The translations under genes were made by a program, and so were the position numbers. From contig OZ241981.1 of assembly GCA_965204345.1 (NCBI GenBank), positions 704,001 to 768,000 of the forward strand: a stretch of 64,000 nucleotides of DNA, given 5' to 3'. The notes under the pieces were generated by a model. The model was not told where the DNA came from and did not search any database. It saw only the letters and a program-made list of their open reading frames with translations. Below are positions 1,201-11,257 of the stretch, piece after piece (the first letter of the stretch is position 1; each line of letters begins with the position of its first letter). Source of the DNA: Nitrosopumilus sp. (GTDB lineage Archaea > Thermoproteota > Nitrososphaeria > Nitrososphaerales > Nitrosopumilaceae).

Positions 1201-2046
1201 ATGGATATCACAAAGGATACAGAAAATATACGCAAGGGGCTCTCAAATAGGGAAGCTGCGATATTAAGCATACTTGCCAAGGATGGCAAATCAATCATAG
1301 GATACAAGGACATCTCAAATGCCATAGACATGTCTTATCAAAATGCCAGAAAGACTGTAGAGAGATTATCCAAGAAAAAGTGGCTGATACCAGTAGCAAA
1401 TGGAAAGTACCTTATCTCGCCATTAAGTGCAGGAATGGAATCTGAATACACAGAACATGAATTTGTCATGGCATCCAATCTTGCAACAGGCAAGCAACAT
1501 TACATTGCATATTGGACTGCCTTGAACCACTATGGATATACGGAGCAGACTCCATTTACTGTCTTTGTTGCAACTACTTCGAGAATAACAGACACTAGTG
1601 TTCACGGGGTAAACTATAAGTTTATCACGATAAATAAAACAAAATTCTTTGGTACAAGGAATCACTTTATTGGAAATAAGAAAGTTATAGTTTCAGACAA
1701 AAACAAGACAATGGCAGATGCCTTGGATCATCCAGAGCATTGCGGCGGAATAGAAGAGGTTGCAAAATGCCTGTGGAATGCAAAAGACGACATATCATTT
1801 GAAAAGATTGTCAGTTACTCAAAAAAAATACAAAACAGCACAGCAATCAAAAGACTCGGATACCTGATTGACGTACTTGAGATAGATGTGCCTTTTTCTT
1901 TGTATGATCAGATGCGTGAGTCAATTGGTTCCGGATATTCCTTGCTGAATCCTAATTCAACAAAAAATAAAGGATCCAATTCAAAGTGGAGGCTGTTTGT
2001 AAACACGTCATCAGATGCCATACTTGAGGCAAAATCTACGACATAG
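1201..2046 (+). CDS. Type IV TA antitoxin AbiEi-like transcriptional regulator (COG5340-like)
   Basis: N-terminal wHTH (RLSKKKWL...GKY), YIAYWTALNHYGYTEQ, SDKNKTMADALDHPEHCGGIEEV and KRLGYL motifs. Confidence 0.85.
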   Translation: MDITKDTENIRKGLSNREAAILSILAKDGKSIIGYKDISNAIDMSYQNARKTVERLSKKKWLIPVANGKYLISPLSAGMESEYTEHEFVMASNLATGKQHYIAYWTALNHYGYTEQTPFTVFVATTSRITDTSVHGVNYKFITINKTKFFGTRNHFIGNKKVIVSDKNKTMADALDHPEHCGGIEEVAKCLWNAKDDISFEKIVSYSKKIQNSTAIKRLGYLIDVLEIDVPFSLYDQMRESIGSGYSLLNPNSTKNKGSNSKWRLFVNTSSDAILEAKSTT

Positions 2047-5063: not shown

Positions 5064-6602
5064 TTACATGTAATACATGTACTTGTTTTTTGGTGTAGAT
5101 TCAGAAGGCATCTCTCTTAAAATTTTTCCAACCTGTCTTGAAAAATGTAAAGTAATAGGTAAATTACTTGCAAAATTTGCATTATTCCAATTTAGTTTAG
5201 TCAGAGCTAAAATTTCTGCACTAATTTTTTCAGGTAATGTATCTCCTATATGTTGAATTATTTCTAAAGGTCGTGGAACATGAGGTCCAGGATAAAGTTT
5301 CATGAATGGGATGTAGCCATTGGTATACAATAACCAACTTTTATCCGGCAATGTAATCATGGTTCCTCTTAATACTGCATGATATCCTTCTCTAAACAAT
5401 CGAATATTCCTTGATCTATTTAGTATTGCAACAAGATCAAATCTTGGAATATCTCCAATTGCTTTTTTGAAACCACTTATTTCTGCATCTTCAAATTTTG
5501 ATGATTTGTGAATTACAACTCGTGTGGGAGATCTACCGCCTGTTTGTTTTGTAAACAAATCGATTGCTGCTTTGATTAATTTTTCAGCTGCCTCTTCTTT
5601 CAAATGAGGTGCATGTCCTCTAGTCCAAGGAAATCTTTCGCCTCGAATAACTAAGCCTTCGCCTTCAGGTGTAAACACTTGAGCCAAACTAGTGCCCATA
5701 CCTCCACCATAAATTTCCTTAGCTTTGAAAAAAGATATTCCAACAAAACAGGTATCTGTTGTAAATAAAGTAGGTCTCCATAATCGTCCTCCAGATTTAT
5801 ACAAAAGTGCAATTGCTAAATTCCATGCAAATGTGGCATCATCCTGTAGTCCTTTTTGTCCTATTTTTCTCTCTTTTGCAGTAATCACATCTAGCGTGTC
5901 TGGAAGAATAAATTGTGTTAAAAGATCGAATTTCATTGCTTGAGCTTTTAGTAAATGATGAAAATTATCTGCACTAATGCTGATGAGATATCTTTCTCTT
6001 TCTTTTTTGTATTCTTCTGGCATAAAATCAAACATAGTACTTTGATCTACACTTACAAGAAGATGTTTTTTTTCAGCGTTTGATTTTTTTCGTCTGCCTC
6101 TAGTTCTTACATCTTTATCTGAAATACATAACCTCATCAATTCTTTTGGAGGTGCACAAATAACAATATTTGGAACTTCCTCTCGTTCTGCAATGTTAGA
6201 AAGATACGCAATGAAAATTTCAACACCTGTAGCAATTCGTTCTTCAACTTTTGGGATATTTTCCAGTGCTTCTATCTCTTTTGTAGTAATTGTTTGATAC
6301 CATTTTTCATTTGTGATTATTTCACATTTGAATGGATGTGATGATGAAAATCCCGGAAAATCAGGAGTCCATGTAGGATTTTTGTCAGGTCCTTCAATCG
6401 GTGTTTGTATTCTTTCAATAATTGCTTTAGTTTGTTCTATTGTTGTTTTATCACCAATTATTCCTACACGAATAGAATTTTTTGTTATTGAATATGGACC
6501 ATACAATGAAATTCCTGTTTTAGGATCAATTGATGGGAATGAGCCTCCAAAAAGAAGTTCAGGTTCTGAGACAATAGTAGTTTTAACTTCACTAAACGTC
6601 AT
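5064..6602 (-). CDS. Short prokaryotic Argonaute (MID-PIWI), catalytically inactive
   Basis: EPELLFG, DPKTGISLYGPY, NFHHLLKA, AWNLAIALLYKSGG, ALTKLNWNN, LPITL and a C-terminal YMYYM; catalytic positions read VGISF and IHKSS instead of GID and RDG. ATG at 6602 overlaps the end of the upstream gene. Confidence 0.93.
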   Translation of the reverse strand: MTFSEVKTTIVSEPELLFGGSFPSIDPKTGISLYGPYSITKNSIRVGIIGDKTTIEQTKAIIERIQTPIEGPDKNPTWTPDFPGFSSSHPFKCEIITNEKWYQTITTKEIEALENIPKVEERIATGVEIFIAYLSNIAEREEVPNIVICAPPKELMRLCISDKDVRTRGRRKKSNAEKKHLLVSVDQSTMFDFMPEEYKKERERYLISISADNFHHLLKAQAMKFDLLTQFILPDTLDVITAKERKIGQKGLQDDATFAWNLAIALLYKSGGRLWRPTLFTTDTCFVGISFFKAKEIYGGGMGTSLAQVFTPEGEGLVIRGERFPWTRGHAPHLKEEAAEKLIKAAIDLFTKQTGGRSPTRVVIHKSSKFEDAEISGFKKAIGDIPRFDLVAILNRSRNIRLFREGYHAVLRGTMITLPDKSWLLYTNGYIPFMKLYPGPHVPRPLEIIQHIGDTLPEKISAEILALTKLNWNNANFASNLPITLHFSRQVGKILREMPSESTPKNKYMYYM

Positions 6603-8016
6603 TGTACTCAACTCCTTTGACATCTTCGTCCAAGTCTTCATCAGTAATTATTATTTCTGAATCATCTTCTTCTTCAATTAGCGGTGGAGGTTCTTCAATT
6701 ACGTCCGGAAGTGGTTTATGATCCCCAAAAACACCATATGACGTTTTGAAAGATAAAGGTCTGAAATTAATTTCAATAGGAGTATCCACAGATCCCATTG
6801 TTATTTTTGTTCCATCTGACAAAACCCACGCCCAGAATCTCATCTCATCGAATTCAATATCATTTTTTAAACGTGATTGCAGTCGGGTACTCAATACTGA
6901 ACGTCTTTTACCCTTAATCAAAACAGAACCATCTATTGAAAATTCCCATCCTGATTCAATTTGTAAAAATAACTCATTTCCTAAAATTTGAAATCGTAAT
7001 CCAGCTGCTCTATGTCTATAAAAATAAGTTGTTAACTCACCTGTTTCTTCATTTTTCTTGGAATATGGAATAATTAATCCACGTTTCCCTTTTCTGACAT
7101 GTGCAGTCCAAGAAAGTTTTTCATTCGTAATGATTTTTTTGTCTCCATAGAACTGTTTACTAGTTTTGTCAAAATACAATCCAATCTTTCGAGTAAATCT
7201 TTTTGTTTCACTAGACAAAAGATCAATAAGCCATCTTGATTTATCATCATGACTGAACCATTCTTTTACATTGACAGATTTTATTTCATGTGTATCAACA
7301 GCTAACCGTAATTTATTTACGCCTTCATTTAAATTTGAAAAAGTATACAAATATTTTTCTCGTAACACAAATGGTTCAATATCATTTCCAAGTTGTCTAT
7401 ACACTGCACTTTTTTCCCAAAATATTGTTGGTGCAGCCCAAATTACTGAAGGTAACTTTGTTACAGCAAATAAATTTGTGTGAATCACCTCATCTATTTT
7501 GTCTGGTAATGATGTTGTATTTTCTAAAAGTAGTGAAGGGCCAGATTCTGTAACTATCTTACTGCCAGGTGTTTTTCCACCTCTAGGTAATGGTTCACCT
7601 CTTATTGTACTTAGTAATCGTTGCATTTCTGTTTTGAATTTAGATTTTTCTCGCAAATCAATTCTATTTCGTATTGCAAGTAATGGTGGAACTTTACATG
7701 GTTTTACAAGTATGGGTATTACCCGCCCTAATCTACCAGAAGGATCAGCAAGTAATGATGCAGCTCTTTCAGCAATAGGCCATTCAGCATTTAGTGCTTC
7801 AGGGGACAATATCAAAGCAAAGAATTTTGCTTTTTTCAAACCTTCATCAACACTATTGATAAAATTATCTCCAGGAACAATATCCCATGGAGCAAAGAAA
7901 ACACGAATATTCCTATCATCTATTTTTTCATTTTCCAGATATTCTCCTATCTTTTTAGCAATTTCTTTATCTGCTTGATTATATGAAATGAATATGTCTT
8001 TTTCTCTTAAATTCAT
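6592..8016 (-). CDS. TIR-APAZ effector protein
   Basis: N-terminal TIR (DIFISY, DIVPGD, ILSP, EWPIAE with the putative catalytic Glu, IPIL, IDLR); C-terminal APAZ-like region (TNLF..LP, YRHRA, LFLQI..GW.F..DG, FW); coupled to the short pAgo. Confidence 0.9.
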   Translation of the reverse strand: MNLREKDIFISYNQADKEIAKKIGEYLENEKIDDRNIRVFFAPWDIVPGDNFINSVDEGLKKAKFFALILSPEALNAEWPIAERAASLLADPSGRLGRVIPILVKPCKVPPLLAIRNRIDLREKSKFKTEMQRLLSTIRGEPLPRGGKTPGSKIVTESGPSLLLENTTSLPDKIDEVIHTNLFAVTKLPSVIWAAPTIFWEKSAVYRQLGNDIEPFVLREKYLYTFSNLNEGVNKLRLAVDTHEIKSVNVKEWFSHDDKSRWLIDLLSSETKRFTRKIGLYFDKTSKQFYGDKKIITNEKLSWTAHVRKGKRGLIIPYSKKNEETGELTTYFYRHRAAGLRFQILGNELFLQIESGWEFSIDGSVLIKGKRRSVLSTRLQSRLKNDIEFDEMRFWAWVLSDGTKITMGSVDTPIEINFRPLSFKTSYGVFGDHKPLPDVIEEPPPLIEEEDDSEIIITDEDLDEDVKGVEYNDV

Positions 8017-8232
8017 AAAATTATACCTCGTATATGCTTTTTATGAGATTTGTATTCATTTAGGAGTGTTATGACCATGAGATCACTTATTCTATTTTAG
8101 ATCCTCAAGTATTGGATCGATCAATTCTGTTAACAATGTAGTGAGATCATTTGATCCAACATTCATCGTACTGTTACAATAAATTTCGTAAGGCATCAAA
8201 TCAAGGTAATTGTGTAATTACCTAAATCCAAA

Positions 8233-9798: not shown

Positions 9799-10149
9799 TT
9801 ATTTCATGTTCTGATCATTCACTATGTGTTTAATCAGTTTGACAATATATGAAACCTGCATTGATTTTCCAATGCCTCCTTTTCTCTTGGGATACGGCTC
9901 TAATCGTCTGTTCTTGTTTACAAGTCGAGTTTCCTTTGAATAACGTTTTACGTTATCCCAGACACCATTAAATTCATAACGTGATATTCCTCGAATCTTT
10001 CCTTCATCTGTCATTATTTTCAACATTAATTCCCCTTTTTTATTAGATTCAAAATATGCCTTGAATCTCCGGTCATATGTTAAAGTCTTGAAATCTTTTG
10101 ATCGTGTTAACTCATCTTGTAATTTATGCCAAAATTCTTGAAAATCCAT
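9799..10149 (-). CDS. Hypothetical protein
   Basis: 116-aa intact ORF; no recognised motif. Confidence 0.6.
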   Translation of the reverse strand: MDFQEFWHKLQDELTRSKDFKTLTYDRRFKAYFESNKKGELMLKIMTDEGKIRGISRYEFNGVWDNVKRYSKETRLVNKNRRLEPYPKRKGGIGKSMQVSYIVKLIKHIVNDQNMK

Positions 10150-10558
10150 AATGAATTTGTAATTTTATCTTATTCAAACTTTTCGTGTATTTTACACTGT
10201 TCAATCTTAGTATCATTTGCTTGTTTTAAACAGACTGTTCAATTCGAGTGATGGGTGTTAAGTTAGGGTGATGACAGATTCAAAAAAATTCACACTTTTC
10301 AAAACTCTGGACATTTGCCCCTAGTATCCAATTCGGGACATGGAATCTAGCATAATTTAGAACGTTGACTTACATTCGAGGGCTGGTGTGTTAGTTAGAG
10401 AACTACATAAATTCCAGTATGTTCTCTCTAATTGTATGAATAATGCAACACAAAGAGGTCTGAAGTTAGTAGGAGGCCACAAACGAGAAGACGGTTCAGT
10501 ACAAGATATTATTGCACCAAATCACGACAGAACCTTTCGATGATCACTTAAAATAAAA

Positions 10559-11257
10559 TCACGAGATCAATTTCAACCAACAACTATCCTTGCCGTTTGA
10601 TAGCCAGCTAAACTCATGCAGTCTTAGAATATCATTAATCTCACGCCAGATGTGTTTATCGATCCAGCGTTTTGGTGTTATTTTTATGGAATCACCCTCA
10701 TTGACTATGGATACCTTCTTGATTCTCTTTCCCAGATTGTTTACAAAGTTCACTTTGATTCCAGCCTGTTTTATCAAATCCAGATATTTGTCTTGACCTA
10801 AATTCAAGTCAATATTTGCAGCTTGAGCAGGTGTCCTGCCATCTAATCCCTGATGGGGCTTTACAAAGTTATGATTGATTTTGAGCAGATCTGCAAAGTT
10901 TTGTACTGATTCGTCATTGCCCAGCCCACGTCTAGCCTTGAGTCTTTCTCTTATCTCATTATGATAACGCTCAATGGGTCGATTCACAAAACCATCCTTA
11001 ATTGATCTAGTTTTGATATGGGCTACTCTGTCTTGAAATTCTTTTCTTATTGCCTCTTGATATGAGTTTAAAGAGTCAGTTAACACATAGTTTGGGTTCT
11101 TGGCAACTACCTTCTTGCCGCTTGCAATAATCTTTCTTGCATCTGCAATCTCTCTTTTCTTTGAGACCACAGTAGCTATCAGAAATCGAGTCTTTGAATC
11201 AATTATGCTCCAAAGCCAATCATGGAACCCCTTTATAACATCGATCTCTAGCGACAT
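10559..11257 (-). pseudogene. IS6-family DDE transposase, 5'-truncated
   Basis: WLWSIIDSKTRF, VLTDSL.SY, NRPIERYHNEIRER, HNFVKPH..L.G.TPA; the N-terminal region and first catalytic Asp are missing. Confidence 0.85.

Follow-up and report, generated by a model that had tools for sequence, protein, structure and literature searches.

Short prokaryotic Argonaute (pAgo) systems are well studied in bacteria, where SPARTA, SPARSA, SPARDA and SPARHA have been described. Koopal et al. (2022; PMC9097488) report that short pAgos are specifically associated with no protein other than the APAZ protein, and the clade in which APAZ is fused to a TIR domain was defined in that paper as S2A, with the TIR of SPARTA (short prokaryotic Argonaute TIR-APAZ) yielding ADP-ribose (ADPR) and nicotinamide. 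SPARTA is reported to be autoinhibited by the acidic tail of its APAZ protein, which plugs the nucleic-acid cleft of the apo complex, and to be activated by tetramer formation (Finocchio et al., bioRxiv 10.1101/2023.09.23.559129), while activation by filaments is reported for SPARHA (PMC12738770) and SPARDA (bioRxiv 10.1101/2025.04.08.647717), and a beta-relay is described in the same two reports. Moreover, Prostova et al. (2023; bioRxiv 10.1101/2023.06.08.544223) described "a subgroup of TIR effectors" within the sister group S2B. The literature that we searched yielded no experiment on TIR systems outside S2A and no work joining Argonaute, TIR and Nitrosopumilus. Here we analyze a window of 64,000 nucleotides from a Nitrosopumilus sp. 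genome (contig OZ241981.1, positions 704,001 to 768,000), in which a TIR-APAZ gene and a short Argonaute gene form an operon (Table 1). Judged by sequence, this operon is a real, intact two-gene SPARTA-like short-pAgo defense system of a known TIR subgroup, and from the published description we infer that this subgroup is the one that Prostova et al. noted within S2B. The system probably combines the architecture of SPARTA with an Ago/APAZ lineage from the S2B side, and would act as an RNA-guided, DNA-triggered NADase that causes abortive infection.

The two genes lie on the same strand, with the TIR-APAZ gene directly upstream of and overlapping the Ago gene, and both open reading frames (ORFs) are full length without internal stops. 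This agrees with an earlier sequence-only reading of the same DNA, made by a model without database searches, which had reported two intact overlapping genes and had quoted a series of motifs (EWPIAE, QDDATFAWNL...LLYKSGG, TCFVGISFF, TSLAQVF..EGEGLVIRG and PHL), all of which are present in the translations. If the Ago begins at its first ATG, the two ORFs overlap by 50 nt; since the homologue matches begin only at query residues 17-25, the start is more probably M14 (position 6602), which would give a protein of 512 amino acids and an overlap of 11 nt. Pfam, PADLOC, profile and fold agree on the identification of a TIR-APAZ and short pAgo operon, as the sequence-only reading had proposed, and the Pfam and PADLOC scores of both proteins are far above chance. 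In the effector, Pfam TIR_2 matches residues 8-135 (E 1.7e-24) and residues 177-404 match the APAZ ('PNTD') part of the SIR2-APAZ and REase-APAZ models of PADLOC (E 1.5e-33 to 2.4e-12); PADLOC, the profile comparison with PDB structures and the predicted fold all place an APAZ-domain protein in the same operon as the Ago. The Ago itself matches Pfam Piwi at residues 223-510 (E 1.5e-7), is covered end to end by the PADLOC model pAgo_I (model positions 2-455 of 455, E 1.8e-143) and can be aligned over its full length with solved short pAgos of 471-507 amino acids; as in other short pAgos, MID and PIWI are its only domains, N and PAZ being absent. The host genome (2.12 Mb, 99.7% complete) encodes an archaeal AmoA (386 bits), and the host is therefore, by its gene content, an ammonia oxidizer, as had also been suggested by the sequence-only reading.

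The structure of the TIR-APAZ protein was modeled with AlphaFold2 on the basis of 28 family sequences, with a mean predicted local distance difference test (pLDDT) score of 78.9, and comprises a TIR domain, a disordered linker, an APAZ domain and a disordered acidic tail (Table 1). Residues invariant in the family alignment are D7, S71, W79, E83, the DPSG-R motif, C107, P110-P111 and P443-P444, with D7, S71, W79 and E83 unchanged in all 28 aligned members, and a TIR domain bearing a putative catalytic Glu is fused to APAZ as it is in SPARTA. When the model was compared with solved structures by Foldseek, the top matches were SPARTA TIR-APAZ chains, which aligned over the whole length (E 5e-20, about 470 columns, 14-17% identity), whereas SPARHA and SPARDA chains matched the APAZ part only (9om4_A: target TM-score 0.76, 22% identity). 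Similarly, an hhalign comparison of the family with five SPARTA-clade TIR-APAZ proteins gave 391 collinear columns with a probability of 98.8% (E 1e-16) and placed E83 opposite the conserved Glu of SPARTA. The sequence-only reading had pointed to a long Pro/Gly linker and an acidic tail. Both are real, with pLDDT values below 50, and the tail (residues 446-474) is rich in Asp and Glu, an acidity that is kept across the family and that matches the negatively charged C-terminal APAZ extension expected for S2B. Neither is special: the linker pairs with the linker region of SPARTA in the hhalign alignment without a large insertion, and acidic C-terminal extensions have been published as a feature of all S2A and S2B APAZ proteins (bioRxiv 10.1101/2023.09.23.559129).

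In the Ago, the MID pocket that binds the guide 5' end contains K232, Q243 and K282, and an alignment of 109 short pAgos shows these three residues unchanged in almost every row, with a single row gapped at two of them, while position 228 varies between H, R, W and Y. Because of this near-invariance of the K, Q and K positions we judge the pocket, from the alignment, to be intact. The positions presumed to be the DEDX sites are occupied by S303, S380/S381 and R502. Loss of DEDX is reported for all short pAgos identified by Koopal et al. (PMC9097488). Modeling of the complex, which had been proposed in the sequence-only reading, gave a predicted heterodimer: Ago together with APAZ and its tail scored 0.81, compared with 0.02 for the best control, and the applied mark is one that 58 of 80 solved complexes but only 2 of 110 mismatched pairs reach. 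The runs share at least 80% of contacts, the pLDDT of the partners is at least 76 and the predicted interface involves residues 411-455 of the Ago PIWI domain and the APAZ domain, although this outcome may merely reflect likeness to complexes that have already been solved.

The sequence-only reading had also placed the Ago and APAZ closer to the SPARDA/S2B type than to canonical SPARTA, a proposal that scores and trees suggest to be largely right. Among solved structures, the Ago matched the SPARHA Ago 9om4_B with 260.7 bits and the SPARDA Agos with 222.7-232.8 bits, compared with 164.6-183.2 bits for the SPARTA Agos and 90.2 bits for 8in8_C, the Ago of a SIR2-type partner. In line with this, the single TIR-APAZ sequence matched the HNH-APAZ of SPARHA at E 8e-18 and DUF4365/DREN-APAZ at about 1e-4, with no SPARTA chain among the solved structures at E ≤ 1e-3. 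The family profile matched the SPARHA HNH-APAZ 9om4_A at E 1.8e-44, the SPARDA DUF4365/DREN-APAZ at about 1e-15 and the TIR proteins PdTIR, AbTIR, TcpB and MAL at 1e-10 to 1e-12, and SPARTA chains were absent from the best 60 of 69 structure matches. For phylogenetic analysis we collected 18 more loci of the class to which the host belongs, the top 80 among 568 confirmed relatives from species-representative genomes, 12 plasmid loci, and S1 as well as extra S2A loci from 401 Pseudomonadota genomes, with the reservation that the 80 genome loci were picked by similarity to the query, which inflates the share of near relatives. Two TIR-partnered plasmid Agos scored 372-420 bits against solved SPARTA Agos and 127-173 bits against SPARDA and SPARHA Agos, and by the former scores they are therefore true S2A references. 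In a careful Ago tree rooted with S1 as outgroup (46 rows, 518 columns, LG+C20+F+G4), the five S2A Agos form a clade with 100/100 support that does not include the query, and this grouping recurs in 100% of 200 bootstrap trees. Sister to it is a clade of 37 rows with a moderate support of 92/97, which comprises the query and all rows of the DUF4365, SMEK, HNH, SIR2, Schlafen and TIR types, and within this clade the query belongs to a four-row archaeal TIR clade (99/100) together with one metagenome-assembled genome (MAG) from Bathyarchaeia and two from Thermoplasmatota. A quick Ago tree of 103 rows agrees with the rooted tree and splits four SPARTA references from the other 99 rows with a Shimodaira-Hasegawa-like approximate likelihood ratio (SH-aLRT) support of 100; this tree has no outgroup, and a root taken from it was set aside. 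The APAZ tree, likewise suggested in the sequence-only reading, recovers the APAZ of SPARTA as a separate clade with a starred support of 99. In summary, these results suggest that Ago and APAZ come from a lineage whose other effectors include DREN, HNH, SMEK and Schlafen and which is sister to SPARTA. The nesting of the Ago inside canonical S2A, by which the sequence-only reading would have been refuted, was not found.

Several observations weigh against this placement and against the function proposed for the operon. The deep branching order is weak, the clade on the S2B side reaching just 92% ultrafast bootstrap, and all S2A references are from Pseudomonadota. In approximately unbiased (AU) tests under LG+G4, neither the query alone joined to S2A (40 rows, ΔlnL 25.3, p 0.127) nor the whole four-row clade joined to S2A (46 rows, ΔlnL 5.8, p 0.337) was rejected, and the tests therefore lend no support to excluding a position next to S2A. 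Together with the shared two-gene architecture and the collinear TIR-APAZ, the AU results are also what would speak for the operon being an ordinary canonical SPARTA, notable for its archaeal host alone. This is nevertheless highly improbable in view of the fully supported S2A clade that forms without the query and contains the two references validated by their bit scores, the higher scores of the Ago against SPARDA and SPARHA, the APAZ profile with its matches to these same systems, and the separate APAZ clade of SPARTA. In addition, a BLAST comparison of the TIR (residues 1-145) with four SPARTA TIR-APAZ proteins gave no significant match (E at least 0.19), and the same TIR shares 44% identity (E 8e-39) with that of P0047, a non-Ago protein of TIR/TPR architecture; because of this, the regulation or the product of the TIR may differ from those of SPARTA. 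Finally, the types of guide and target, the product and the oligomeric state proposed for the operon are inferred.

These similarities of the TIR bear on its origin as well. The sequence-only reading had raised an independent recruitment, in which the TIR would have been captured onto an S2B-type APAZ separately from the TIR of SPARTA and would have become SPARTA-like in function by convergence. The lack of BLAST-level similarity to SPARTA TIRs, the closeness to the TIR of P0047 and the profile matches to PdTIR, AbTIR, TcpB and MAL ahead of any SPARTA chain are consistent with such a capture, as is the TIR label on the 103-row Ago tree, which requires nine changes, at least five of them forced by starred branches, and an exchange of effectors between clades has been suggested by Prostova et al. 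(bioRxiv 10.1101/2023.06.08.544223). However, the TIR, linker and APAZ are collinear with those of SPARTA in the hhalign alignment, TIR occurs on both sides of S2 in the rooted tree, with TIR lineages that are early and unresolved on the S2B side, and fewer changes are needed if a single old TIR-APAZ later exchanged its effector domain for Schlafen or nucleases. Moreover, the APAZ tree is compatible with a single origin of this TIR-APAZ type (three changes, with a forced minimum of one), and the branch of S2A is long (1.41), so that divergence alone may account for the difference of its TIR. With a position sister to S2A also not rejected by the AU tests, an independent recruitment is not established; we consider it possible though doubtful, and the sequence data make an old TIR-APAZ within S2, with later swaps of the effector domain, somewhat more likely. 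P0047 is itself a metagenome protein of 796 amino acids of the TIR/TPR/NB-ARC type, and its TIR is as close to the TIR studied here as are those of the best TIR-APAZ relatives, a likeness in sequence that hints at an exchange of TIR domains between defense architectures.

An operon of this type is not a rarity, and a TIR subgroup within S2B had been published before (Prostova et al., bioRxiv 10.1101/2023.06.08.544223). A protein search returned 43 TIR-APAZ homologues of 410-486 amino acids with 33-82% identity, 42 of which have a TIR match in Pfam. When 94 partner proteins at related loci were typed by clustering of their N-terminal domains, 45 were of the TIR type found here, followed by Schlafen/AlbA_2 (22), DUF4365 (10), a first type with no Pfam hit (5), HNH (4), the TIR of SPARTA (4), SMEK (2), and a second type with no Pfam hit and SIR2 (1 each). 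The TIR type of this operon occurs in both bacteria and archaea, across many phyla of each, and accounts for 38 of the 80 nearest genome loci. In the host's class, a short-pAgo match (E ≤ 1e-10) was present in 17 of 401 sampled genomes, with a partner of this TIR type in 7 (host included), Schlafen-APAZ in 5, the unnamed domain in 1 and fragments in 4; the other TIR-bearing members of the class fall in different Ago clades.

Some of the related loci differ in the form of their partners. Among the non-TIR partners of these archaeal short pAgos, Schlafen/AlbA_2-APAZ is the most frequent (L008-L012, L036, L049, L064, L068 and others) and is at times fused to the Ago (L079, L093). Five archaeal APAZ partners (L007, L023, L039, L040 and L057) share an N-terminal domain without Pfam hit ('UNK1'), which in L040 belongs to a partner fused to the Ago, and L084 has another unassigned N-terminus. 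In a Phycisphaerales locus (L035, 2351-3891) the TIR-APAZ gene appears to be split into two overlapping ORFs, one of which encodes the TIR and the other the end of APAZ; this is probably due to a frameshift or marks a pseudogene. On two rhizobial plasmids (L102, 4124-6560; L103, 5484-6548) more TIR-domain genes adjoin a canonical SPARTA operon, beside which genes for a 7-cyano-7-deazaguanine synthase and a DNA glycosylase/lyase are also found; these neighbors may represent a second defense module.

The mechanism that we propose is drawn in every step from relatives of the two proteins. The MID-PIWI Ago, presumably without catalytic activity, would pair with the APAZ half of its partner to form a heterodimer with a nucleic-acid cleft resembling that of long Agos, which in the resting state would be filled by the acidic C-terminal tail while the TIR domain is kept apart. 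A 5'-phosphorylated small guide, most likely RNA, would enter the H-K-Q-K pocket of MID, and its pairing with complementary DNA of an invader would displace the tail and lead to oligomerization mediated by the Ago. The TIR domains gathered in this way would hydrolyze NAD(P)+ through E83, and the infected or plasmid-bearing cell would cease growth, which amounts to abortive infection. In evolutionary terms, the operon belongs to a widespread set of TIR-bearing lineages that fall on the S2B side in the tree of S2 short pAgos, and a great age of TIR-APAZ within S2 is a simpler explanation than its recent and separate capture.

Instead of killing by depletion of NAD+, the TIR might make a signaling nucleotide, a cyclic ADPR (cADPR) isomer, for a separate effector. 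For this TIR the closest solved bacterial TIRs include AbTIR and PdTIR, some bacterial TIRs of this kind make cADPR isomers, and TIR signaling systems are described as common in bacteria. Among the loci examined, however, no receptor or effector gene is conserved beside the operon, the sole shared neighbor being P0003, which has a different relative position where it recurs and is absent from the other loci, and both the exclusive association of short pAgos with APAZ proteins and the ADPR and nicotinamide produced by the related SPARTA TIR (Koopal et al., PMC9097488) argue against it, so that we regard signaling as quite unlikely. A different question is how sensor and effector would be coupled in an RNA-guided NADase of the kind proposed here. 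We tentatively consider that an S2B-type sensor might be joined to the TIR NADase through target-induced filaments, as in SPARHA and SPARDA, rather than through a closed tetramer as in SPARTA, although the odds are against it. If this were true, the nuclease and Schlafen systems would have arisen by domain swaps from TIR-APAZ as the ancestral effector of S2, and the operon would be the first demonstrated case of abortive infection by NAD depletion in an ammonia-oxidizing archaeon.

Two other genomes of the same genus carry pAgo loci that are not intact. In one of them (G213; L136, about 9837-10298) a deletion scar is found in which sequences corresponding to window positions 5064-5232 (86% identity) and 7922-8223 (74% identity) abut each other, joining the last ~56 codons of the Ago to the first ~30 codons of the TIR-APAZ and the upstream region, with about 2.7 kb, i.e. 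most of both genes, deleted. In another (G181; L015/L018) the Ago is split into ORFs of 208 and 320 amino acids, and a homologue of P0003 (E 4e-77) lies on the opposite side of the Ago. The scar and the split Ago, together with the IS240-type transposase gene beside the operon, could indicate that the operon described here is a decaying, non-functional relic as well. This is very unlikely given that both of its ORFs are full length without stops, that all family-invariant residues are kept, that AlphaFold2 predicts a confident fold and that the complex prediction passes its controls.

The neighborhood of the operon contains genes for an AbiEi antitoxin homologue, the transposase, a PtuB-like HNH protein and a helix-turn-helix (HTH) protein (Table 1). 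An AbiEii partner of AbiEi was not recognized among the ORFs scanned. The AbiEi, transposase and PtuB-like HNH genes suggest a mobile or defense island. A tRNA integration site was considered and dropped, as no tRNA was found in window positions 1-25000. Likewise, the upstream ORF P0003 has no Pfam or PADLOC match, and in the Atlas it led only to unnamed archaeal clusters and to a sub-threshold nucleotidyltransferase lead (0.88); it was rejected as a conserved third gene of the system, its homologue being present, among the loci searched, at the pAgo locus of G181 only and in a different position.

Table 1. Features of the TIR-APAZ/short pAgo operon and its surroundings (positions in the 64,000-nucleotide window).
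Feature	Position	Strand	Remarks
TIR-APAZ effector gene (P0001)	6592..8016	-	intact ORF, 474 aa
TIR domain, residues 1-140	7597..8016	-	AlphaFold2 TIR fold, pLDDT mostly 78-92
Putative catalytic Glu E83 codon	7768-7770	-	in EWPIAE motif of TIR domain
Disordered TIR-APAZ linker, residues 141-170	7507..7596	-	pLDDT <50 at 145-170; family-conserved GEPLPRG motif
APAZ domain, residues 171-445	6682..7506	-	pLDDT mostly 85-96; predicted interface with Ago PIWI
Acidic disordered C-terminal tail, residues 446-474	6595..6681	-	pLDDT <50 at 450-474; after invariant PP motif
Short prokaryotic Argonaute gene (P0002), MID-PIWI only	5064..6641	-	intact ORF, 525 aa from first ATG
MID 5'-end binding pocket region (H228, K232, Q243, K282)	5796..5960	-	alignment of 109 short pAgos
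Upstream intergenic region (presumed promoter and 5' leader)	8017..8232	-	window 7922-8223 74% identical to G213 deletion remnant
Unannotated upstream ORF P0003	8233-9336		
AbiEi antitoxin homologue	1201-2046	+	PADLOC 264.6 bits; Pfam AbiEi_1
IS240-type DDE transposase gene	10559-11257	-	beside operon
PtuB-like HNH protein, 450 aa	15584-16936	-	weak HNH/PtuB-like match

TIR-bearing lineages outside S2A are frequent, also in archaea that are important to the nitrogen cycle, and the operon is a useful comparative case rather than the source of a new principle. It could show whether a TIR on an S2B-type sensor is activated by filaments or tetramers and whether TIR-APAZ is the ancestral S2 effector, and it is a potential first handle on abortive-infection immunity in ammonia-oxidizing archaea.

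Compared with the described SPARTA systems (MapSPARTA, CrtSPARTA and BabSPARTA), the operon has the same two-gene arrangement, with TIR-APAZ upstream of a MID-PIWI Ago, the same collinear order of TIR, linker, APAZ and acidic tail with the conserved Glu aligned, and a PIWI-APAZ interface, which in our case is predicted, and an RNA-guided, DNA-triggered NADase would likewise be expected. It differs from them in the low identity of its TIR-APAZ to the solved SPARTA chains, in an Ago that lies outside the S2A clade and scores higher against SPARHA, in a TIR without BLAST-level similarity and in its archaeal host. SPARHA (S2B, HNH-APAZ; 9om4) and SPARDA (S2B, DREN/DUF4365-APAZ; 9qbl, 9qbp and 9jsb) provide the nearest solved Ago and APAZ by sequence and share with the operon the same side of the rooted Ago tree and the acidic C-terminal tail. 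In contrast, their effector is a nuclease where a putative TIR NADase is found here, and activation by filaments has been demonstrated for both. The archaeal Schlafen/AlbA_2-APAZ operons with short pAgo, which are the second most frequent type among the classified partners and occur in the host's own class, are the nearest non-TIR relatives of the Ago and differ in their N-terminal effector domain. Finally, with a TIR effector on an S2B-type APAZ, the operon fits the description of the S2B TIR subgroup given by Prostova et al. (bioRxiv 10.1101/2023.06.08.544223).

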